DNA from: a virus | DNA length: 64,000 nt | IMG/VR virus record: IMGVR_UViG_3300045391_004554 | Coordinates: 36,226-100,225 of that record | Strand: one strand, 5' to 3' | In this document: in pieces, positions 8,276-60,611 of the stretch | How the letters are laid out: every line of letters starts with the position of its first letter | Numbering within the stretch: the first letter of the stretch is position 1 | Notes under the pieces: generated by a model | Told to the model about the DNA's origin: nothing | The model's input: the letters and a program-made list of their open reading frames with translations, nothing else | Databases searched by the model: none | Program-made: the position numbers and the translations under genes

Positions 8276-8347
8276 TAGCGGGAATCGGAATCGAACCGAC
8301 GTACGACAAGGTTATGAGCCTGTCAGGAAACCAACGTCCTCCCCGCG
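8276..8347 (-). tRNA. tRNA-Met(CAU), initiator-like, deviant D arm and anticodon stem
   Basis: CGCGGGG...CTCATAA...GTCGG TTCGATT CCGAT TCCCGCTA; 1:72 mismatch as in fMet; TATATTTG promoter element about 10 nt upstream; CCA not encoded. Confidence 0.8.
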
Positions 8348-8559: not shown

Positions 8560-8575
8560 TGTAAAATATTTTACA
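8560..8575. repeat. copy of a dispersed palindrome, consensus RTAAAATATTTTAY
   Basis: TGTAAAATATTTTACA; further copies at about 876, 12002, 24331, 33235, 40894, 45259, 47768, 56242 and 60298. Confidence 0.75.
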
Positions 8576-8583
8576 AAACCAAG

Positions 8584-8663
8584 TCTTCCCTGAGGGATTT
8601 GAACCCTCACCCCGAAGGACGGGATTTTAAGTCCCGCGCGTCTGCCAGTTTCACCAAGGGAAG
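8584..8663 (-). tRNA. tRNA-Leu(UAA)
   Basis: CTTCCCT/AGGGAAG acceptor; CGGGA-CTTAAAA-TCCCG anticodon arm; short variable arm with TTCG loop; TTCAAAT T loop. Confidence 0.92.
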
Positions 8664-8667
8664 TAAG

Positions 8668-8741
8668 TGGGCTGTGAAGGATTCGAACCTTCAACATCCA
8701 GATTCTAAGTCTGGCGCGACTACCAATTGCACCAACAGCCC
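8668..8741 (-). tRNA. tRNA-Leu(UAG) lacking the long variable arm
   Basis: GGGCTGT/ACAGCCC acceptor, A73; CCAGA-CTTAGAA-TCTGG; 5-nt variable loop ATGTT; GAAGG-TTCGAAT-CCTTC. Confidence 0.85.
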
Positions 8742-8746
8742 ATTTG

Positions 8747-8822
8747 TCTTGTGGGAGGGATTTGAACCCCCGTGATCTCGCTTCCAGGGCGAGCTAGATA
8801 AACCGGACTCCTATACCACAAG
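8747..8822 (-). tRNA. tRNA-Pro(UGG) with C33 and A37
   Basis: C1-G72 and A73 Pro identity; CTCGC-CCTGGAA-GCGAG anticodon arm; TTCAAAT T loop. Confidence 0.85.
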
Positions 8823-8857
8823 AAATAAAAAACCCCTTGACTTTTTAGATCAAGGGG
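8823..8857 (-). terminator. attenuator terminator immediately 5' of tRNA-Pro
   Basis: CCCCTTGA-TCTAAAAAG-TCAAGGGG-TTTTTTATTT: 8-bp perfect stem plus U tract. Confidence 0.85.
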
Positions 8858-8882
8858 CGCGTTCAGTTAATAGTTAATATGA

Positions 8883-8954
8883 TTAATCCATACTTCGCCC
8901 CTTAATGCCAGGTAACGGCAAGCCCAAGAGGTTTAATAGAGATATCTGTTTCAT
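8883..8954 (-). CDS. 23-aa Leu/Pro-rich leader peptide (putative attenuator uORF)
   Basis: ATG AAA CAG ATA TCT CTA TTA AAC CTC TTG GGC TTG CCG TTA CCT GGC ATT AAG GGG CGA AGT ATG GAT TAA = MKQISLLNLLGLPLPGIKGRSMD; codons 18-20 are complementary to the terminator 5' arm. Confidence 0.75.
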   Translation of the reverse strand: MKQISLLNLLGLPLPGIKGRSMD

Positions 8955-8958
8955 GACG

Positions 8959-8991
8959 CAAGTATAGTAAATTATTTTATTAAAATGCAAA
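8959..8991 (-). promoter_or_regulatory. Bacteroidota sigma-A-type promoter of the leader/tRNA operon (probably leaderless)
   Basis: TTTG (8991-8988), 21 nt spacer, TATACTTG (8966-8959; one mismatch to TAnnTTTG), then CGTC and ATG. Confidence 0.65.
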
Positions 8992-9018
8992 AAGCCCTGT
9001 AAATAAATACAAGGCTTT
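8987..9018 (-). terminator. intrinsic terminator insulating the tRNA operon from upstream transcription
   Basis: AAAGCCTTGT-ATTTATTT-ACAGGGCTTT-TTG. Confidence 0.7.
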
Positions 9019-9101: not shown

Positions 9102-9554
9102 TTATTCTTGATCGTCCGCTTCCTGGAAAGTAAGAATATACTTTACTCCAGGCTTAAGAAAATCAATTGCTCCTTTTGCGCTGATCATCATTTCTAATGA
9201 TCCGCTTGGCGTCGCTTCTGAAAACTGATTATCCTCCGTGTTTCGCTTTGAAGAATAAAGAGCATTCATTTTAACTTTTTGATGGCCACCATAGCCATAG
9301 TTAGTTACCTCATCGCACCTGAATTTGGCACGCATACTTGGTTTTTGTTCGTCAGACATTGTTTGATTTTTTGAGCCTAAACCGGCATTGCTAAAATACC
9401 TATTTATTTCTTTTTCCAATAATAAATTTTGAGCTAACTGCTCGATCTGCCATTCTCCATAAAATATCGGGGCATCCCTCTCAATTGCTTCCTTTAACCA
9501 TGTGTAATCTTCCATACACATATAATACCAAAGCGTGACAAACAAAAAAGTCAT
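9102..9554 (-). CDS. conserved phage hypothetical protein (start uncertain; possibly 9359, MSDEQKPSMRAKF)
   Basis: RAKF.C...EDNQFSEATPSG.LEM.I motif typical of a widespread small phage family; annotated start overlaps a terminator. Confidence 0.6.
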   Translation of the reverse strand: MTFLFVTLWYYMCMEDYTWLKEAIERDAPIFYGEWQIEQLAQNLLLEKEINRYFSNAGLGSKNQTMSDEQKPSMRAKFRCDEVTNYGYGGHQKVKMNALYSSKRNTEDNQFSEATPSGSLEMMISAKGAIDFLKPGVKYILTFQEADDQE

Positions 9555-9822
9555 GTAAATTTACATGACTTTCAATGGCTTTATCCGTTCCAACGTGGAC
9601 TTATCCTTTATGGGCCACGCAGTGATGATCACTTCCGGCTTTCATTCCCATCAGACTCTTCGAGTTTTCCCGTATTTATTCCTCAGCCTATGGTGCGTTC
9701 CGCGCACATACTGAATATTCACCGGTGTATACGTTTCGCCCTGAGTTTCGTTATTGTGGCACATACTCCACGCGTGTCCCCGGAACCCCGCCGCGTCTTT
9801 CAATGTACTCTACCGCCGTTGG
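9545..9822 (-). ncRNA. candidate stand-alone structured ncRNA of about 275 nt
   Basis: TATATTTG element at 9833-9826; GC-rich body; 5' CCAACG complementary to 3' CGTTGG; ends in the palindromic terminator AAAGTCATGTAAATTTACATGACTTT-TTT (9547-9572). Confidence 0.5.
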
Positions 9823-9834
9823 CTTCAAATATAA

Positions 9835-10029
9835 CTAAAAACTGAATATTCCAAAGTGATCCAGCGCCCACAAAAGAAATATTAAGAAGAAAAGAGCGAA
9901 CACAATAGCCTGTAAACTTGGTGACCAAAATCCTACCGTGGCCAGAACAACCCTTAACACATAAAATAATACTGCCATAATCAATAAAAAAATGAGCAGT
10001 GAAATTAACAATCCGATTAATCCGTGCAT
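9835..10029 (-). CDS. small two-TM membrane protein
   Basis: MHGLIGLLISLLIFLLIMAVLFYV...IVFALFFLIFLLWAL. Confidence 0.65.
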   Translation of the reverse strand: MHGLIGLLISLLIFLLIMAVLFYVLRVVLATVGFWSPSLQAIVFALFFLIFLLWALDHFGIFSF

Positions 10030-24329: not shown

Positions 24330-24341
24330 TTGTAAAATATT

Positions 24342-24497
24342 TTATAAATAATAACCTTCGTCGTAAAATACCCCCATCACTATATCATGCTCACTTTCGC
24401 CAGTTTCAGGTTCACCGTATACAACCATTGGCATATCACCAACAATTGCATCGCCCCAATTAGGACATTCTTCGGTTTCACAAATCTGCTGGCTCAT
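24342..24497 (-). CDS. 51-aa acidic hypothetical protein, not in the ORF track
   Basis: MSQQICETEECPNWGDAIVGDMPMVVYGEPETGESEHDIVMGVFYDEGYYL fills the intergenic gap. Confidence 0.4.
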   Translation of the reverse strand: MSQQICETEECPNWGDAIVGDMPMVVYGEPETGESEHDIVMGVFYDEGYYL

Positions 24498-24741: not shown

Positions 24742-27700
24742 TTTCCGCTTGTGCTTATATGCTGCATTAAAATATGATCAATTTCGCTATAACTATTTAA
24801 TTGGGTCACATCCCTCACTAACCTGATCCTGCAATACTCCCCGGCGATCTTACCACCGCGATCCACGATCATAGACGGTGAATCATTTTGATTTGACGGA
24901 TAACTGCCCATATTTCTCAGCAAGGTTGAATAAAATTTATTCTGCCTTTTTCTCACCCAAAACGGCGCCACATAACTGTATAAGTTTGGATGGTTCGTCT
25001 TGATTTTATCTACGAAGAACTTGACTACCGGGCTTGTAATGATGATGCATTGGTAAGTCAGATCGCGCTCCTCTTTTGGATAAAATGACAGATCAATAAC
25101 CTGGCTGTCAGAAACTCCATAAAACTCATTAAATGTATCTACATCCTTTGAATTATGCAAATATGGCACGCCATTTACAAAAGAAATAAATTCATTACCT
25201 GATATTGACTTCTGCAGCATGCCATAGAATTCCGGGACAAATGTTTCGAACCTGGCCCATTGTTTCTGCTCTATGCTGAATGTGAACGTTTCGTTGAGCT
25301 CAGTAAAAGTCTCCCGCTCCGTATTCACGAAATCGTTAACCTGAGTTGAGCTATTTTTTCGTTTACGGAAGCTGAATGATATCTCCTTGTATTTTGGATT
25401 GACACCAACCGTGAGCTCCATTAGATTACTTAAAATCGTCGCCGGATCTAGTGAGTTATTATAATTCCGCTGGTAGTTGAACTTGTCAGAGAAATAACTC
25501 TTTACACCCAGATCGGCGATATCAATAGCGGTGCGATAATCACATAGCGCGATGGCCTCCTTTTTTGAATCCGCCCAGACAACGTAGTTCTTATCTCCCT
25601 CTATAAACTGGATGGTGCCAGTATCGGCATATTCACATCCAAACATGCTTTCTTTTTTCTGCTGAGGATCGCCTATGATATTATCGGCACTGGCCACGAT
25701 AAGCCCGGCAGAAGTACTCCTTACCAGCTGCAGATCATAGTCCGTCATGAACCAATCACTCTGGCAGATGAATACGATCAGTTTATTTTGCGCATGCCCG
25801 GCAACAATTCCCCCGCGTTCCTGTCCCTTGAACTGCTTCCGGTTACTTCCTCTCCATGTACCGAATCCGTTGATCTGCCCCTGGTTCACAAACTCGTCAG
25901 ATTTTATAACATCGTCTGGATACCATTGCTGCATTGCCTGGTTGTTTTTCACCAGAACCCGGCCAAGACTGCTGCAGTTGGCGCCCCAGAAATCTGATAC
26001 GGACGACGACATGAAAGGATGCAGAATAGCTTTGCCTGTACATTTCGAGATATTCAGGCTACGGTTTTGATAATAAGTATCGAAAGCATTCAGCACGAAC
26101 TGCTTAGCCAGTATTTTACCTTCGCTGGTGAAATACATCCCCGGCACTTCAAAATATGCCTCTTCTTCTTCGCCGTTGCTTGGGGTTGAAAGCTGTATCC
26201 AGAACCCGCACTGCTTGCTCAGGGCCAGCAATCGTTTATCAAATGCAATAAAAATATCACTGCCGGTGATTGTAGCATTCACATTGTTGGTTGTGGTAAT
26301 GCCTGTAGTTTCATCCGTAGTAGAAGTTGAAGTGCTTTCTTCCTGAACAGATTGATTAAAGTCAGAGCCTAATACCTGGAAGTCCAGATAACCGTTGTTT
26401 TTAGCAGGGTCAAAGAGATTACCGTTACCATCATCATAGATACGCACAAAATCTCCAGGCACCTGTTGATATTCTACCGTAGTAGAAAAGTTGTTTTGCT
26501 TATTATAATCCAGCAATGACTGTATGCTGATCTTTGCCCGGACCGCTCCGTTTCCGTCAGCAAGTATGTTCCCATCTTTATCCAGGAAAGAAATTGCATC
26601 CCCAACCCAGTGAAGATATTTTTTATTCGTCAGCTCTTTAGTAACTGAAAAACTTATGTAGGCAAGATCATTAGGTAATATCAAATCCTGTAGAAGGTTC
26701 ACCACGATCTGCATAGGATTGAAGTTTCCTTTTTGCGGAAAACTTGGCGCATCGATATAACCGATAAAGTTTGCATACTGCACGCGTCCCGCACGGTCCC
26801 AACCTTGCACTGAAACGCCATACCGTCCGCCTTCCTTAATACTATTTACATTCTGATCAGCAAAGGTAAAAGAGAAATTAAAAGTCGCCGGATATATTCT
26901 TTCGACACAACTGTTACAACCAACAATATTGCTGTCATAAGGTTGTACATCCAGGCAAGACGCCGCACAGGTTTGCATTAAACAAGATCCTGAAACATTA
27001 GCATAAATCCTGCCTTGGTAAGCGGCATTTCCGTCATGCGCTATAATCTCAAAAGCGCCGTCAATGCCTGTATAGGCTGTGGCGCCCTGCGTTAAGGTAA
27101 CGCCGACACCTGCTATAGGAGCGCCTGTCTTACAGTCAAGGACGGTACCACGAATCTTTATTTGCATGCACGGCCCCAGAGGGCCTCCTAAAAAATCGGC
27201 TACCGATATATTTTCCTGGTAGTAGCCATTATCCTGTTTGGCATTAAGGTGAATTGCGGTTTCAGCTAAGATATTAGGGCCATTACAATTCACTAATCCG
27301 ATGAACTGCACTTCCCCTTTATAGGCAGTTCCCATGGCCATATATTCAAAATAATAGCCGTTGTGATCCGTTATCTTTCCGCTTCTTTCATATTGTGCTA
27401 AACCACCTAAACCAGCTTTTTTAATATATGTTGCCCGTTCATAAGGCTGCAACGAAGTATCATCTTCCTGTAAGTACCCTTCGATGAACCGCCATAGATT
27501 ATTGAAAACACCGGCGTTCCCGGATTGCTGAAAGACATACGGAACAAAAAGATAAAACAAACTATTATTTGTTGTCCAGGCATCAAAATCCTCTGTGCAA
27601 ACATCGACCTCTATTTCCTTTACAAAGTTGTTTACACCGGCCCAGTTTGAAAGGCCAAACATCGCGTTGATATTATTCTTATTGGCAAGACCTATTATGG

Positions 27701-33233: not shown

Positions 33234-33245
33234 TTATAAAATATT

Positions 33246-36104
33246 TTACGGCGTATCGATTTCTATACTTAATACATCCGGAGCGCTTACACCGCCGGTA
33301 GGCACCGTCAATGTAATATCCGATAATCCTGATAACGGTTGACTATCTAAAACAGTAGTACTATTCTTAACCAGTTTCAAATGAGCCGTTGGCGGACCTA
33401 AAGTTCCACTTGGGGTCACCACTATACTGCCTGCAGATACGGCTGCAGTATAGTCAGCTTTACTGGTGGAAACAACGACACCGGTAAAGCTAGCAGGAAT
33501 CCCTGTCGCAGAACCTCCGGTAATTTGCAAGGCTATACCATATCCGGCCCAAACGTAGAAGTTATTTACCGTTCCACTGGAAACAGGGACCGTAATAGTA
33601 GGCATCCAGTCGCTCACAAACCTTGGCGATGAAGTATTGTCACACACGGCACGCACCTGGAATGAATATGTTCCTGTCACCCCTGTTGGTATCGGAATAT
33701 TAAAGTTACCGCCCGGCGCACCAAAATCATTAATAACCGTGGTCTGACCACCAGTTGGATCAGTCATCAATACTTCTACAATAGTTTGGGATCCCGAAAG
33801 TGCAACCTGGACGCCGAAGTTCGCGCCATTTAAGCCTATATTAACAGATAGCGGAACCACGCAACCATTTGGCGACGCGCCTGATACCCATGGAGAGTAT
33901 ACACCATTTGAACATAGCTTACGCACCTGAACCTCGTATTGAGCGTTAGTAAGCCCTCCGGAACCTATTGCTATTGGCAATGCACCTGCAGTTGTATTTA
34001 CCTGGGTGAAGGTCAATCCTGAATTGGCTATCCTGTAACGTACCTGGATGACCGTTGAACCATCACCGGTATCGTTTGCATCAACAGTTAATGTGCCTGA
34101 AGCAAATACTCCTGAAACGTTCGTTACTGGTGCACAAACAGCCCCAGCGCATCCCTGAGATATACCACATAGCTGAGATGCCAAGTCTGAACTTGCTGTA
34201 ATTTTTGTCAATATAATTGAAGCCAACTCATCATAACTAACCTTTGCACATGATCCCCCCTTGGTACCGAGTATGCCATCGGTCGAAACCAGCATTTTGT
34301 CTACCGTACCAAAAAGCGAATTGATATTCACGCAACTTAATCCGGCTGCATTTAACCTGGTAAATAATTGCTGCTGAGCCAGGATCATGTTTTTCAGCAC
34401 GTCACTTAACTTTGCAGCCTGATCAATAGTGATTTTATTGACAGCCGAGTAATCACTGTTGAAGCTATACTGCTGCAATCCTGCCACACCGAACGCAATT
34501 TCAGTCGTGTCCAAAGCACAAACATAATCGAATAACAGCTGAAGTAAATCCACCAGGGATTTTGTATTCGTTGAAAATAAATAGGTCTTCGTTGAGGTAT
34601 TTCCGGAAACGACCGTGCTTACCGTCAGGGTAGAAACTTTGAATGTATTAGCCAGAGACTGAATAGTAACGGTTCCAGCCGTGTCATCCTCATTGACTGT
34701 AAAGGTTCCTTTTGAAAGACTATTAAGCCAAGTAGATATACCAGAAGGGTTCAACAATGAAAGTCCATCAGGCGCGGCCACACTTGCTCCATCAATAAAT
34801 ATCGCAGTTATAGTCTGAACGCCGCTTTCATTGATCGGAACTGCCAATATATAATCGGCACTTGAAAGATCGATGATGCATTTTCCGTCAAAGCTATTGA
34901 GCGCATCCTGGAAAAGTGTCTTATCAACTATGGCATTGAATAAGGATTTAAGATTATCATCCTCATCAATAGCCACCAAAATATTTTCAGCCAGCACACC
35001 ATAATTCAAGGAGATTGCATAGATGTTTTGACAACCCGACTGCGTTAAAATGACATTAAAGGCCAAGTCATCATTGTCATTAGTAACAGCTGTAGTTGCA
35101 CCACTGATCGTGTAAGTGGTATTGCTTCCTTCCGTTACTACATCTACGTCAATTCCGCATCCAGCGGCTACTACAATAGTTTGAGTAGCATCTACCGTGC
35201 GCGGAGAAATTAATTGCGCTCCGCAATTACAGTCACATCCAAGAATGTCAGCTATTTTCAGTATTTCTTCCGAACTCGAAAGCCCTATTTTTTCTTTTGA
35301 TAGGGCCAGATAAACATAAGGTGATATTATGTCTAATTGAGCTTTAGCCGATTTGCCACGTTCAGTATTGGGCCATTGCTGGTAAATGTCAGTGACTGCT
35401 TCTATACAACAAATCACGCTGGCCAGACCGGTATTGCAATTTACCGAAAAGTTAAGTTTAGTAATATATTGAAGCTCCAGGAAAATCCCATCCTGAAGAT
35501 CGTAAGTTGCAGTAGTTGTATTTTTTACAATATAGTCTCCGGTATAAACAGAATCCGATCCGGAGATTAAGAAAGGTGTGACTGTAAATGCCTGTGAATC
35601 TAAGGTGCCCTGAGGGTAATAGAAATTTCCCGATTTAGATACAATTACCGGCGACTTGCCATTATAAGATAAATTTGTAGTTTCTGTTATTTTTATACTT
35701 GGTGAATCGCAGTTGATATCTGCAGTTAATTGTCCTGGAATGGTACCATTTTGAATCGCTGCCGCTTCACAAATATTTTTCTTTACTTCTACAGTAGTTA
35801 ATGTTCCATCCTGGTCCTTTAAGGTAGCAGTGATCTGCCACCATCCGAACATAAAAAGATTGTTTGGAATGGATACTGTCTTCGTATGCCCGGCAAGTGT
35901 AATGTCCGGAGAGTTAAAATCAATATCCTTGATCGTAATGCCGCTTGGATCTACAACTTTAAAAAATATACCTTGTATGGTGCCGCTTGGTTTAAAACTA
36001 GTATAACCATCAATGACAAATAATATTTGCTTGCTGGCTAATTTAAACGTAGCTCCGAATCCGAAGTTTACAATATTATCCGAGTTTACTGGAACTGGGT
36101 TCAT
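33246..36104 (-). CDS. large Cys-rich virion protein with C-terminal FN3/Ig-like repeats
   Basis: YEVQVRKLCS and YSFQVRAVCD FN3-like ends; CDCNCG and VICCIE motifs. Confidence 0.6.
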   Translation of the reverse strand: MNPVPVNSDNIVNFGFGATFKLASKQILFVIDGYTSFKPSGTIQGIFFKVVDPSGITIKDIDFNSPDITLAGHTKTVSIPNNLFMFGWWQITATLKDQDGTLTTVEVKKNICEAAAIQNGTIPGQLTADINCDSPSIKITETTNLSYNGKSPVIVSKSGNFYYPQGTLDSQAFTVTPFLISGSDSVYTGDYIVKNTTTATYDLQDGIFLELQYITKLNFSVNCNTGLASVICCIEAVTDIYQQWPNTERGKSAKAQLDIISPYVYLALSKEKIGLSSSEEILKIADILGCDCNCGAQLISPRTVDATQTIVVAAGCGIDVDVVTEGSNTTYTISGATTAVTNDNDDLAFNVILTQSGCQNIYAISLNYGVLAENILVAIDEDDNLKSLFNAIVDKTLFQDALNSFDGKCIIDLSSADYILAVPINESGVQTITAIFIDGASVAAPDGLSLLNPSGISTWLNSLSKGTFTVNEDDTAGTVTIQSLANTFKVSTLTVSTVVSGNTSTKTYLFSTNTKSLVDLLQLLFDYVCALDTTEIAFGVAGLQQYSFNSDYSAVNKITIDQAAKLSDVLKNMILAQQQLFTRLNAAGLSCVNINSLFGTVDKMLVSTDGILGTKGGSCAKVSYDELASIILTKITASSDLASQLCGISQGCAGAVCAPVTNVSGVFASGTLTVDANDTGDGSTVIQVRYRIANSGLTFTQVNTTAGALPIAIGSGGLTNAQYEVQVRKLCSNGVYSPWVSGASPNGCVVPLSVNIGLNGANFGVQVALSGSQTIVEVLMTDPTGGQTTVINDFGAPGGNFNIPIPTGVTGTYSFQVRAVCDNTSSPRFVSDWMPTITVPVSSGTVNNFYVWAGYGIALQITGGSATGIPASFTGVVVSTSKADYTAAVSAGSIVVTPSGTLGPPTAHLKLVKNSTTVLDSQPLSGLSDITLTVPTGGVSAPDVLSIEIDTP

Positions 36105-36170: not shown

Positions 36171-36228
36171 CTGGGTTGGGAAGAATACTACACCTGGTGA
36201 AGGGGTAGAATCTTTGGCAATTCAGCTG

Positions 36229-37164: not shown

Positions 37165-38106
37165 TTAATTAAGAACTTCCATTAATTTTCCGTTGATCTC
37201 CTGAGCCTTCACATAAGCCTCATATATCTCCGGCTCTAAGATGCCTTCCGACAGGAATTGAATCTTATCAGTGGCGCTTATGCCTTGATATAAGAACTCT
37301 TTTGCTTCGTCGATGATCAGTACTGCGTCTCCTTCTTGTGTAAAGTCTAACACCCGGTTGCTCTGCATCTGTTCAAGTATAAATTTAAAGCGGAGTTTGG
37401 TAATCTCGATCACCCGAAGGAAGTTGTCAAATTTCTTAACCTCTTCCAATAGCTGATTGAATATTATCTCATTCTGCGCCTGCGGATCTAACTCAAACAG
37501 GTTTGCCAATACCGCCAGTTTTGCTTCGCTGTTTTCAGCTTCCAGCACGATTTGTTCAGCCTGGTTGCGACGTTTCATATCGCTCACCTGAGAACGGTTA
37601 AGGTTTTCCGGATTGTACTCACAGAATAACTGCTCACGATTATTTGGATCGCGTGACACGTTATCCTTATTGTACGTGTGATGCCTGATCATTTCAATCA
37701 GCGGCCCGTCTGTTTCCCTGTTAAAGTCATTCAGACCGTTGCTGATGCTTATCTGGGCATCCTCATCCGTTACACGCAGCTTAAGCACGTTGTCCTGGTA
37801 TTGTTTATCCAGGGACGAAGTACCGCGCATATAGCGTATCTCTACGGGCCTGCATTCGGCAAATTCTTTTTTGCCTAAGTCATGCTTCTCGCCCCATTTG
37901 TGAAAAACCAACTTGCCGGTGGGCACGCCATTCTTCAGTTCCTGCCAGGCCCATGCTCTTGAAAAGTTGGGGATTTGTATCTCCCCAACCTGCAAGATCA
38001 TCTTCGAAGTCTGACCGTCAGGCAACCCCGTAGTTTTATTTAAAAAACCTTCCTCAATTTCTGATGGTACTGCGCCCATCACCATTATCGAAAAATATTT
38101 ACTCAT
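37165..38106 (-). CDS. conserved crAss-like protein downstream of MCP
   Basis: Position and size (313 aa), helical C-terminal half. Confidence 0.55.
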   Translation of the reverse strand: MSKYFSIMVMGAVPSEIEEGFLNKTTGLPDGQTSKMILQVGEIQIPNFSRAWAWQELKNGVPTGKLVFHKWGEKHDLGKKEFAECRPVEIRYMRGTSSLDKQYQDNVLKLRVTDEDAQISISNGLNDFNRETDGPLIEMIRHHTYNKDNVSRDPNNREQLFCEYNPENLNRSQVSDMKRRNQAEQIVLEAENSEAKLAVLANLFELDPQAQNEIIFNQLLEEVKKFDNFLRVIEITKLRFKFILEQMQSNRVLDFTQEGDAVLIIDEAKEFLYQGISATDKIQFLSEGILEPEIYEAYVKAQEINGKLMEVLN

Positions 38107-56240: not shown

Positions 56241-56252
56241 CTGTAAAATATT

Positions 56253-56624
56253 TTACGATTTAGAAAGTCTACTTACTGATAGGTTTAACTTTTTTGCTTC
56301 GAGAGGATTCAACTCCGCCCAGAGATGGTGTTCAGGACAAAGAACGCGCATTAACTTTTTATCTATTAAATTATTGCCGATTCTGCCCCCTGCATGATGT
56401 AGCGTTTTAACTTCGCTTTCACATCCTGGGAACTGGCAACAATCAATTTCTTTGAATACCTCAGCCTTATTTTTCTCATACTCGCGCAACTTTTTAGCCC
56501 GTTTCTTAGTGACTTTAGCAATAGGCTTTGTACTTCTTGCTAGTGGCTTCGTTGCTCGTGGTAACGGCGTTTTACGTGTTAATGTTGAGTTCCAGATTTT
56601 ACCCATATTAGTATGTTCTATCAA
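56253..56624 (-). CDS. HNH-like Zn-binding nuclease
   Basis: RKTPL basic N-terminus, CQFPGC...LHH..GR...LCPEHH. Confidence 0.6.
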   Translation of the reverse strand: MIEHTNMGKIWNSTLTRKTPLPRATKPLARSTKPIAKVTKKRAKKLREYEKNKAEVFKEIDCCQFPGCESEVKTLHHAGGRIGNNLIDKKLMRVLCPEHHLWAELNPLEAKKLNLSVSRLSKS

Positions 56625-60296: not shown

Positions 60297-60308
60297 TTGT
60301 AAAATATT

Positions 60309-60611
60309 TTATAAGTCGATTTTTCGGTTTACGATTTCTTCTAACATTCCCAACCGATCATGAAGGTGGATCTTGAAAAGCGGAATACTCTCACAGGCTC
60401 GGCCAAGTTTTGTACTGAGTAATTCTTTCGTACGGTAAAATGATATAATGATACCAACTTGCACATCAAAAGGTACCGATTCAAAATAATCCCAAGTAAT
60501 AGCCCCATGATGTTTATAATAATCTTCGATATATATCGATAGCAGCCTGGTAGCAGAAGGAAATTGAACTCTTAGTTCATCCCAAGTATTTTCATTATTT
60601 AAATTCTCCAT
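60309..60611 (-). CDS. hypothetical protein
   Basis: ORF track. Confidence 0.55.
   Translation of the reverse strand: MENLNNENTWDELRVQFPSATRLLSIYIEDYYKHHGAITWDYFESVPFDVQVGIIISFYRTKELLSTKLGRACESIPLFKIHLHDRLGMLEEIVNRKIDL

Follow-up and report, generated by a model that had tools for sequence, protein, structure and literature searches.

We have examined a 64,000-nucleotide stretch of viral DNA (hereafter the window), corresponding to positions 36,226 to 100,225 of the IMG/VR virus record IMGVR_UViG_3300045391_004554, with a focus on the minus-strand region that precedes three tRNA genes, tRNA-Pro(UGG), tRNA-Leu(UAG) and tRNA-Leu(UAA). The sequence of this region makes it likely that the tRNA genes stand behind a ribosome-mediated, codon-matched leader-peptide attenuator, which would give the phage feedback control over its own tRNA supply: the phage probably makes the Pro, Leu and Leu tRNAs mainly when ribosomes read the matching codons slowly. 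A leader-peptide attenuator had been put forward in an earlier reading of the sequence (the original prediction), and this reading is supported by the comparison with a related phage, in which the leader codons have changed together with the tRNA set, while the alternative RNA helices have been kept, one of them with a compensatory base-pair change. In what follows, G000 is the record of the phage under study and G005 is the related IMG/VR record; the coordinates of the tRNA locus of G005 are given on L182.

The leader and its four segments

The elements of the leader and of the tRNA array are listed here in the order in which they occur on the minus strand.

8991-9018, minus strand: intrinsic terminator that ends the preceding transcription unit (11-bp stem, 6-nt loop, T-rich tail)
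8959-8991, minus strand: sigma-A-type promoter-like site (TTTG at 8991-8988, 21-nt spacer, -7 box TATACTTG at 8966-8959)
8883-8954, minus strand: leader upstream open reading frame (uORF), 23 codons, MKQISLLNLLGLPLPGIKGRSMD, followed by TAA (8885-8883)
8924-8931, minus strand: segment 1, CCUCUUGG, at codons 8-11; 5' arm of the 1:2 hairpin, inside the regulatory codons
8896-8905, minus strand: segment 2, UUAAGGGGCG, at codons 17-20; its partner is segment 1 or segment 3
8850-8859, minus strand: segment 3, CGCCCCUUGA; pairs with segment 2 in the antiterminator and forms the 5' arm of the terminator
8827-8858, minus strand: intrinsic terminator 3:4 (10-bp stem at 8858-8832, 7-nt loop, U6 at 8832-8827; hairpin of -15.6 kcal/mol)
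8746-8822, minus strand: tRNA-Pro(UGG), called by ARAGORN; Rfam tRNA score of 47.6 bits
8667-8741, minus strand: tRNA-Leu(UAG), 75 nt, with a 5-nt variable loop, called by ARAGORN; Rfam score of 62.1 bits
8583-8663, minus strand: tRNA-Leu(UAA), class II, called by ARAGORN; Rfam score of 51.4 bits

The original prediction had described the upstream terminator, a promoter (TTTG, 21 nt, box) that ends 4 nt before an ATG, a 23-codon open reading frame (ORF) with eight Leu or Pro codons among codons 6-15, a strong terminator followed by the three tRNA genes, and a perfect complementarity that overlaps the 5' arm of this terminator; all of these are found in the sequence, and segment 1, which was not on that list, is added by the present analysis.

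The regulatory part of the uORF, i.e. codons 6-15 (8939-8910), reads CTA TTA AAC CTC TTG GGC TTG CCG TTA CCT, so that 8 of the 10 codons specify Leu (CTA, TTA, CTC, TTG, TTG and TTA) or Pro (CCG and CCT). Segment 1 lies inside this run and pairs with segment 2, as well as with the 3' arm of the terminator; the region of the 1:2 hairpin (8954-8880) folds with -17.5 kcal/mol. Within segment 2, AAGGGGCG (8903-8896) exactly complements CGCCCCTT (8859-8852), within a helix of 10 bp in total (8905-8896 with 8859-8850). The uORF runs through segment 2, with its stop codon located 11 nt beyond it, and a gap of 4 nt separates the U-run of the terminator from tRNA-Pro. The arrangement of the pairings 1:2, 2:3 and 3:4 is, as read from the sequence, the four-segment plan of the classical attenuators; the leader fold has a z-score of -3.46.

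The -7 box TATACTTG ends 4 nt ahead of the ATG at 8954 and fits the Bacteroidota -7 box TAnnTTTG at 7 of 8 positions, with the optional -33 TTTG located 21 nt upstream. Full promoter matches of this type number four on the minus strand genome-wide, which is about the chance expectation; the promoter match alone is thus not significant. In Flavobacterium psychrophilum, the sigma-A -7 box is located at -12 to -5 (PMC9723704), and the same distance would place the transcription start on A8954, so that the leader mRNA is probably leaderless, beginning at AUG 8954.

In order to estimate how often such a leader would arise by chance, 20,000 dinucleotide-preserving shuffles of 8958-8863 were examined. 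An ATG within the first 8 nt that opens an ORF of at least 15 codons was present in 4.3% of the shuffles, and such an ORF with at least 8 Leu or Pro residues out of 23 in 0.05%; a duplex of -19 kcal/mol or lower between upstream sequence and the terminator 5' arm, against -19.1 kcal/mol for the real duplex, was present in 0.48%, with shuffle tests giving P = 0.005-0.01 for a duplex of antiterminator strength. The ORF, the Leu/Pro load and the antiterminator occurred together in 0 of the 20,000 shuffles: the joint features of the leader are far beyond chance. Among the short ORFs of the genome (n = 382), 3.4% are equally rich in Leu and Pro, and none of the five other terminators that a strict finder located in the genome has a comparable upstream competitor.

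A homologous leader before another set of tRNAs

G005 was found by the alignment of terminase homologues and is the closest relative whose leader-tRNA locus was compared. The record comprises 98,180 bp, its TerL is 49% identical to that of G000, and its five tRNA genes are located on the TerL strand, approximately 36 kb downstream of TerL, as in G000. The locus is syntenic, with homologues of a 2688-aa protein (C-terminus) and of a 241-aa protein upstream, and a homologue of a 105-aa protein downstream. The array of G005 has the order Leu(UAG), Leu(UAA), Ser(GCU), Ser(UGA), Tyr(GUA): tRNA-Pro is absent, and the two Leu tRNAs, the first and the second of the array, are homologous to the respective tRNAs of G000.

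The uORF of G005 (L182 1705-1631, minus strand) has 24 codons, MKNKNLYSLLLSYSLYDAKRHPMD, and its codons 6-16 read CTA TAT AGT CTC TTG TTA AGT TAT TCG TTA TAC, i.e. 11 out of 11 specify Leu, Ser or Tyr, there is no Pro run, and all five tRNAs of the array are represented; by standard wobble, 10 of the 11 codons are cognate to these tRNAs. At proteome frequencies, a run of 11 Leu, Ser or Tyr residues has P of about 1e-7, and in shuffles, 0.08% contained an ORF with 11 or more such residues and 0.005% a run of 8 or more. The leaders of G000 and G005 can be aligned throughout, codon by codon; both have an MK start, an MD-stop end and Leu codons at positions 6, 9, 10 and 14/15, and the positions that are occupied by Pro, Asn and Gly codons in G000 are occupied by Ser and Tyr codons in G005. 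The covariation of the uORF codons with the downstream anticodons, which the original prediction had proposed as a check, is thus seen in this pair: the matched residues have changed from Leu/Pro to Leu/Ser/Tyr, tracking the tRNA set. The terminator is located at L182 1606-1584, followed by U7, and ends 2 nt before the first tRNA gene; the upstream terminator of G000 has its counterpart in a hairpin at L182 1862-1835. A homologue that lacked the uORF or the AAGGGGCG/CGCCCCTT pairing had been named as evidence that would speak against an attenuator; G005 keeps the uORF, the terminator and the pairing.

Conservation of the RNA structure

The stretches that are kept between the two leaders are CUCUUG in segment 1, AAGRGGC in segment 2, GCCYCUUGA in segment 3 and UCAAGGGG in segment 4, as well as UAUGGAUUA around the stop codon; in this sequence comparison, conservation tracks the RNA structure and not the peptide. 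All three helices, 1:2, 2:3 and 3:4, are kept in G005: the 1:2 hairpin has an identical CUCUUG core, with 6 of its 8 pairs kept, and the core of the antiterminator retains 7 bp, with the pair 8900-8855 changed from G-C to A-U, a compensatory change. The same substitutions have side effects on the other helices, as the change from C to U gives a G-U wobble in the terminator and the change from G to A turns a U-G pair of the 1:2 hairpin into U-A. For the G005 leader, the predicted fold consists of 1:2 and 3:4 and has a z-score of -4.19.

This pattern bears on a different view of the leader, in which the ORF would encode a functional micropeptide or be the N-terminal remnant of a gene into which the tRNA cassette was inserted, the hairpins being ordinary terminators and possibly a tandem duplicate. 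The gene that follows the homologous upstream gene in contig L008 starts with MKNIS, as compared with MKQIS here, and segments 1 and 3, like segments 2 and 4, resemble each other, as they would in a duplicated hairpin; however, the core of the peptide differs between G000 and G005, while the RNA helices and the stop region are conserved, segment 2 also pairs with the CG at 8859-8858, outside the stem core of the terminator, which is unexpected for a plain duplicate, and the Ser/Tyr set of G005 and the His/Gln/Glu/Pro sets found elsewhere are not remnants of one gene. We therefore regard a micropeptide or a gene remnant as very improbable.

The effect of a translating ribosome on the attenuator structures was modelled by a 28-nt ribosome footprint on a transcript that ends at segment 3, i.e. 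at the moment of the decision. In this model, the antiterminator forms as long as the A site is at codons 2-14 (G000) or 2-15 (G005), and is absent with the A site anywhere from codon 15 or 16, respectively, to the stop codon; the run of matched codons ends at this footprint boundary in both leaders (codon 15 in G000 and codon 16 in G005), and segment 2 is covered once the ribosome has reached the stop codon.

The same design in cultured Bacteroidota phages

The tRNA genes of five cultured Bacteroidota phages were located, and the sequence upstream of them was read in three, phi40:1, Panino and Gundel_1. In the Cellulophaga phage phi40:1 (KC821612.1), the uORF that starts at 37983 contains the run LLHQEPLEQLRLP; behind it come a terminator and Pro-Glu-Gln-His...Leu-Arg tRNAs. 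Another uORF, at 35281, has many Lys, Thr, Ile, Met, Asn, Ala, Asp, Gly and Val residues and stands before tRNAs for Lys, Ile, Gly, Met, Asp, Thr and Val. In the Maribacter phage Panino (PP540027.1), three uORFs are found: the first, at 25321, contains QRLHQELEQP and is located before Pro/Glu-Gln-His-Leu-Leu-Arg; the second, at 26342 (AATGIAIIGRTKDK), is located before Ala-Lys-Ile, then Gly, Asp, Thr and Val; and the third, on the minus strand at approximately 68090, has many Asn, Phe, Ser and Tyr residues and is located before Tyr-Ser-Ser, Asn and Phe.

A terminator lies ahead of the tRNA block in all five leaders of phi40:1 and Panino and abuts the first detected tRNA in four of them, namely the one at 37983 and the three of Panino; three of these four also have the leaderless geometry of the -7 box, the exception being the leader of the Ala block of Panino. 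The -7 boxes TATATTTG of Panino and TATATTTA of phi40:1 are separated from the ATG by 4 nt, which matches the geometry of TATACTTG in G000, and in three of five truncated folds the terminator 5' arm is paired with sequence from the 3' part of the uORF. The leaders of G000 and G005 are homologous to each other, and no homology to the phi40:1 or Panino leaders is evident from their sequences; what the latter have in common with the G000 leader is the layout, i.e. a -7 box, 4 nt, an ATG, an MK... start, a run of matched residues and a terminator.

The matching of codons across phages also bears on the view that termination is conditional without any part played by translation, with the read-through timed by a factor of the phage or of the host (an antiterminator protein, or an RNA polymerase that is modified or phage-encoded) and the helices serving this factor. 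Phages commonly time their genes by antitermination, and the leader promoter overlaps TAAAATAATTTA (8979-8968), a one-mismatch copy of a palindrome that recurs in this genome and that could be the site of a regulator. Such a factor is not needed to account for the ORF, and it leaves the cross-phage codon matching unexplained; moreover, no known protein-binding leader matches, PyrR reaching 22.5 bits against a threshold of 54. A factor-driven switch of this kind is improbable in our judgement.

Evidence that weighs against the proposed attenuator

Several of our observations do not favour a codon-matched attenuator. The structural covariation comes from two sequences and amounts to one compensatory pair. 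With a stalled ribosome in place, the full-length minimum free energy (MFE) structure still includes the terminator, which means that read-through would have to be decided kinetically, as in trp. Without a ribosome, the 2:3 helix of G000 is already the MFE structure once segment 3 has been made, which would lead to read-through, whereas in G005 the 1:2 helix wins, which would lead to termination; the predicted default of the untranslated leader either differs between the two phages or is poorly predicted. Of the folding with and without a masked ribosome footprint, which had been proposed as a check, one part is in agreement with the attenuator, since the antiterminator forms on the truncated transcript only when the A site is at the early or matched codons, and the other part, in which the full-length structure keeps the terminator, agrees with it only if the decision is kinetic.

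With regard to the codons, CTC and CCT would require four-way wobble by U34. In addition, pyrimidine-rich hairpin arms tend to read Leu or Pro in two of the three frames, and part of the Leu/Pro enrichment of G000 could be a by-product of such arms; a by-product of this kind leaves the Ser and Tyr codons of G005 and the residue sets of the other phages unexplained. With regard to the start of the transcript, a clear -7 box of G005, TACTTTTG, is located approximately 90 nt upstream of the uORF, which may therefore not be leaderless in this phage. Finally, a quick look at the Tenacibaculum phage Gundel_1 returned no clear uORF before its tRNA arrays.

The persistence of the terminator in the full-length fold would also be expected if the terminator were simply leaky or belonged to a small-RNA gene, in which case a terminated RNA of approximately 130 nt, having its own function or no function, would be made with a fixed read-through and the ORF would not act as a sensor. 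The terminated product would have a stable 3' hairpin and folds well (by the z-score given above), and attenuator RNAs that act as small RNAs are known (rnTrpL, PMC6614838). A constitutive terminator of this type does not explain why the residues of the ORF track the tRNA set not only in G000 and G005 but also in four of the phi40:1 and Panino leaders, why the matched run ends at the footprint boundary or why the 2:3 helix contains a compensatory change, and we consider it to have little probability.

Proposed mechanism

For the codon-matched attenuator, we propose the following sequence of events. Transcription from the promoter-like site would give a leaderless mRNA that begins at AUG 8954, and a ribosome would translate the 23-codon uORF while the RNA polymerase advances. 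If decoding is slow at the Leu and Pro codons 6-14, the ribosome would be held on segment 1, leaving segment 2 free to pair with the newly made segment 3; the terminator would not form, and the polymerase would enter the genes of tRNA-Pro, tRNA-Leu(UAG) and tRNA-Leu(UAA). If decoding is fast, the ribosome would cover segment 2 and stop at the UAA, the 3:4 terminator would form, and transcription would end 4 nt before the tRNAs. The circuit would thus open when the matching charged tRNAs are scarce. The transcription start, the translation of the uORF, the kinetic coupling of ribosome and polymerase and the stall-dependent read-through are the steps that we infer from the sequence.

The quantity that would be sensed in this way is the decoding capacity for the codons that are read by the tRNAs of the operon itself, which amounts to a negative feedback on the tRNA supply. 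The original prediction went further and saw in the leader an on-demand sensor of tRNA depletion and a counter-defence circuit, in which a ribosome stalled on the Leu or Pro codons would lead to the production of replacement tRNAs. In an extended form of this view, an anticodon nuclease, or another immune effector that targets tRNAs, would remove the host tRNA-Leu or tRNA-Pro, the replacement tRNAs that are then switched on would resist the nuclease by means of their altered anticodon loops (C33/A37 in tRNA-Pro, A37 in tRNA-Leu(UAG)), and the leader would be a general module that phages rewrite codon by codon with each change of their tRNA set. We regard this extended view as doubtful: the anticodon loop of tRNA-Pro is the only hint toward a role in the defence against nucleases, and negative feedback on a self-encoded tRNA supply is a plainer reading that fits the same facts.

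The tRNA genes

The three tRNA genes are separated by spacers of 4 and 3 nt and are the only tRNA genes in the 100-kb record. A second promoter between the terminator and tRNA-Pro, which had been listed among the findings that would refute an attenuator, is ruled out by the gap of only 4 nt; given this gap and the absence of other tRNA genes from the record, the phage tRNAs can be reached only through the leader terminator.

The anticodon loop of tRNA-Pro, CCUGGAA, contains C33 and A37, while U33 is nearly invariant among tRNAs and Pro tRNAs usually carry G37. The tRNA-Leu(UAG) also contains A37, with G37 in its G005 homologue, and it has a class I shape with a Leu-type D arm; bacterial Leu tRNAs normally carry a long extra arm. 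The 75-nt form of tRNA-Leu(UAG) is kept in G005 (L182 1500-1574, minus strand) with paired changes in its stems, which indicates a conserved, working gene. The C33/A37 loop of tRNA-Pro and the A37 loop of tRNA-Leu(UAG) could bear on an escape from nucleases or on an independence from m1G37 (see PMC10264068).

At 8277-8346 (minus strand), between a 52-codon ORF and a terminator at 8234-8206, lies a sequence that weakly resembles a tRNA and has a CAU anticodon loop; it scores 20.3 bits, which is below the tRNA threshold, it is not called by ARAGORN, and it may be a decayed or atypical fourth tRNA.

Comparison with known systems

The leader resembles the leader attenuators of enterobacteria (leuL, with its CUA CUA CUA CUC, ilvL, thrL, trpL, hisL and pheL) in having a short, promoter-proximal ORF whose regulatory codons form a run that lies within segment 1 or immediately ahead of it, and segments that pair as 1:2, 2:3 and 3:4, followed by a U-run, with the position of the ribosome deciding between them; as in ilvL and thrL, several amino acids would be sensed by one leader. 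Unlike these systems, the output of the phage leader consists of tRNA genes, and not of biosynthetic enzymes or synthetases, so that the loop would close on the sensed molecule itself; further differences are that the leader belongs to a phage, whose host is probably a member of the Bacteroidota, and that its uORF has no Shine-Dalgarno sequence, is probably leaderless and extends through segment 2 to a stop codon 11 nt beyond. T-boxes are also transcription attenuators that respond to a specific tRNA pool through the choice between a terminator and an antiterminator, but they bind the uncharged tRNA directly, by means of a specifier codon and the T-box sequence and without translation, whereas the phage leader would be read by a ribosome; moreover, T-boxes have a length of approximately 200 nt or more and regulate synthetase and amino-acid genes.

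In mycobacteria, leaderless polycysteine short ORFs are reported to act as cysteine-responsive attenuators (bioRxiv 10.1101/834739); they are similar to the phage leader in that a leaderless short ORF with a run of codons for the sensed amino acid stands at the 5' end of an operon, and different in that they belong to another phylum and control genes of cysteine metabolism. Signs of leader-peptide attenuation have been reported for amino-acid operons of Flavobacterium (PMC9723704). It is established that phage tRNAs replace host tRNAs that are cleaved by defence nucleases (PMC10264068, PMC11555353); the array described here is similar in that its tRNAs would supply decoding during infection, and variants of the anticodon loop, to which the tRNA-Pro loop may be compared, have been proposed to escape nucleases. 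Attenuators, terminators, promoters and leader peptides are not mentioned in PMC10264068, and our literature search returned no account that links phage tRNA genes to attenuators or leader peptides, in keeping with the original statement that no described attenuator with a phage tRNA array as its output was known to its author.

The searches of the databases gave the following results. No leader family of Rfam (Leu_leader, Phe_leader, His_leader, Thr_leader or Trp_leader), T-box or riboswitch reaches its threshold, and only tRNAs pass in the window; the best sub-threshold hits are the PyrR match already mentioned, for the G000 leader, and Phe_leader, at 23.9 bits against a threshold of 55, for the G005 leader. 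Single-protein searches of viral contigs with neighbouring genes returned no relatives; searches of viral contigs for the exact DNA patterns of the hairpins and of the tRNA junctions returned no matches; the pattern of palindrome plus ATG gave only chance matches in AT-rich contigs; and scans of genome contigs for the leader pattern gave nothing, or ordinary terminators away from tRNAs. A BLAST search of the region and its tRNAs against cultured phages returned generic tRNA similarity only, the distant TerL relatives that carry tRNAs (at most 30% identity) have unrelated upstream regions, and the records G006-G009 contain no tRNAs. TerL homologues with 76-86% identity occur in Logan and JGI contigs.

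Genome context of the leader-tRNA unit

The whole record comprises 100,225 bp, with essentially all genes on one strand and with no Shine-Dalgarno sequence at 78 of its 85 ORFs. The nearest cultured relatives of its TerL, at 21-30% identity, belong to phages of Flavobacterium, Cellulophaga, Tenacibaculum and Maribacter; since these hosts are all Bacteroidota, the host of the present phage is likely to be a member of the same phylum.

The palindrome that was mentioned in connection with the leader promoter, TAAAATATTTTA, occurs in 17 perfect copies in the 100-kb record, mostly in intergenic regions, and many of the copies are located exactly 3 nt before the ATG of a gene. A constant spacing between promoter and ATG is a hallmark of leaderless mRNAs, and the palindrome is probably the main promoter element of the phage, giving leaderless mRNAs. 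The perfect copies in the window include those at 60300-60311, 56244-56255, 33237-33248 and 24333-24344, in addition to the following one.

8562-8573, strand not assigned: perfect copy of the palindrome TAAAATATTTTA, directly after the tRNA array, at the 3' border of the leader-tRNA unit

This last copy is probably the promoter of the next unit. With promoter-like sites at its head and at its tail, and with a terminator 4 nt before the first tRNA, the leader-tRNA stretch appears as a unit of its own. The palindrome resembles the TATATTTAC-AAT-ATG arrangement of the Cellulophaga phage phi40:1, and a copy is also found in G005 (approximately L182 457-468); our search of the literature found no mention of it in a relevant context.

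Upstream of the leader, a 150-codon ORF is located at 9102-9554 (minus strand); it is probably shorter, with a likely start near 9359, as its homologues align only from there on. Its product is a small conserved protein (RAKF...TEDNQFS.ATPSG.LEMM) that is found in many soil phage contigs (phrog_6978). The alignment of this protein led to loci in viral and metagenome contigs, none of them with adjoining tRNAs, and its use as a marker of the lineage was rejected, the gene being a widespread small phage gene. Farther upstream, at 9546-9854 (minus strand), a G+C-rich stretch of approximately 280 nt without an ORF is located between a sigma-A-like promoter (TTTG, 18 nt, TATATTTG; 9854-9826) and a terminator (9573-9546); it looks like the gene of a structured non-coding RNA, and no Rfam family matches it with an E-value of 1 or better.

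In G005, a 16-mer, TTTTATTTTAAAAAAT (19 nt with its flanks), is present in exactly two copies, at L182 1802-1817 and 1109-1124 (minus strand), which flank the cassette, one just upstream of the leader and the other just downstream of the array; the pair may represent either a duplicated promoter or direct repeats that mark the cassette as an insertion. A G+C-rich region of approximately 600-700 nt without a long ORF, at L182 480-1100 (minus strand), lies downstream of the array and contains ends that resemble T arms and acceptor stems; it includes a very weak match to the 3' end of a transfer-messenger RNA (618-635) and a GGTTCGATCCC hairpin (890-873), and it may hold degenerate tRNA-like or other structured RNAs.

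Meaning for phage biology

How and why phages carry tRNA genes has been debated for decades. If the leader acts as proposed here, phages would regulate their tRNA supply on demand, and classical attenuation would be extended from the supply of amino acids to the supply of tRNAs. The leader appears to be rewritten together with the tRNA set, from Leu/Pro in G000 to Leu/Ser/Tyr in G005 and to other sets in other phages, which would make it a compact, evolvable and probably portable codon-specific sensor. As two phages with this design have cultured hosts, the idea can be taken to the bench now; if it holds, the leader would directly indicate the tRNAs whose shortage a phage anticipates.

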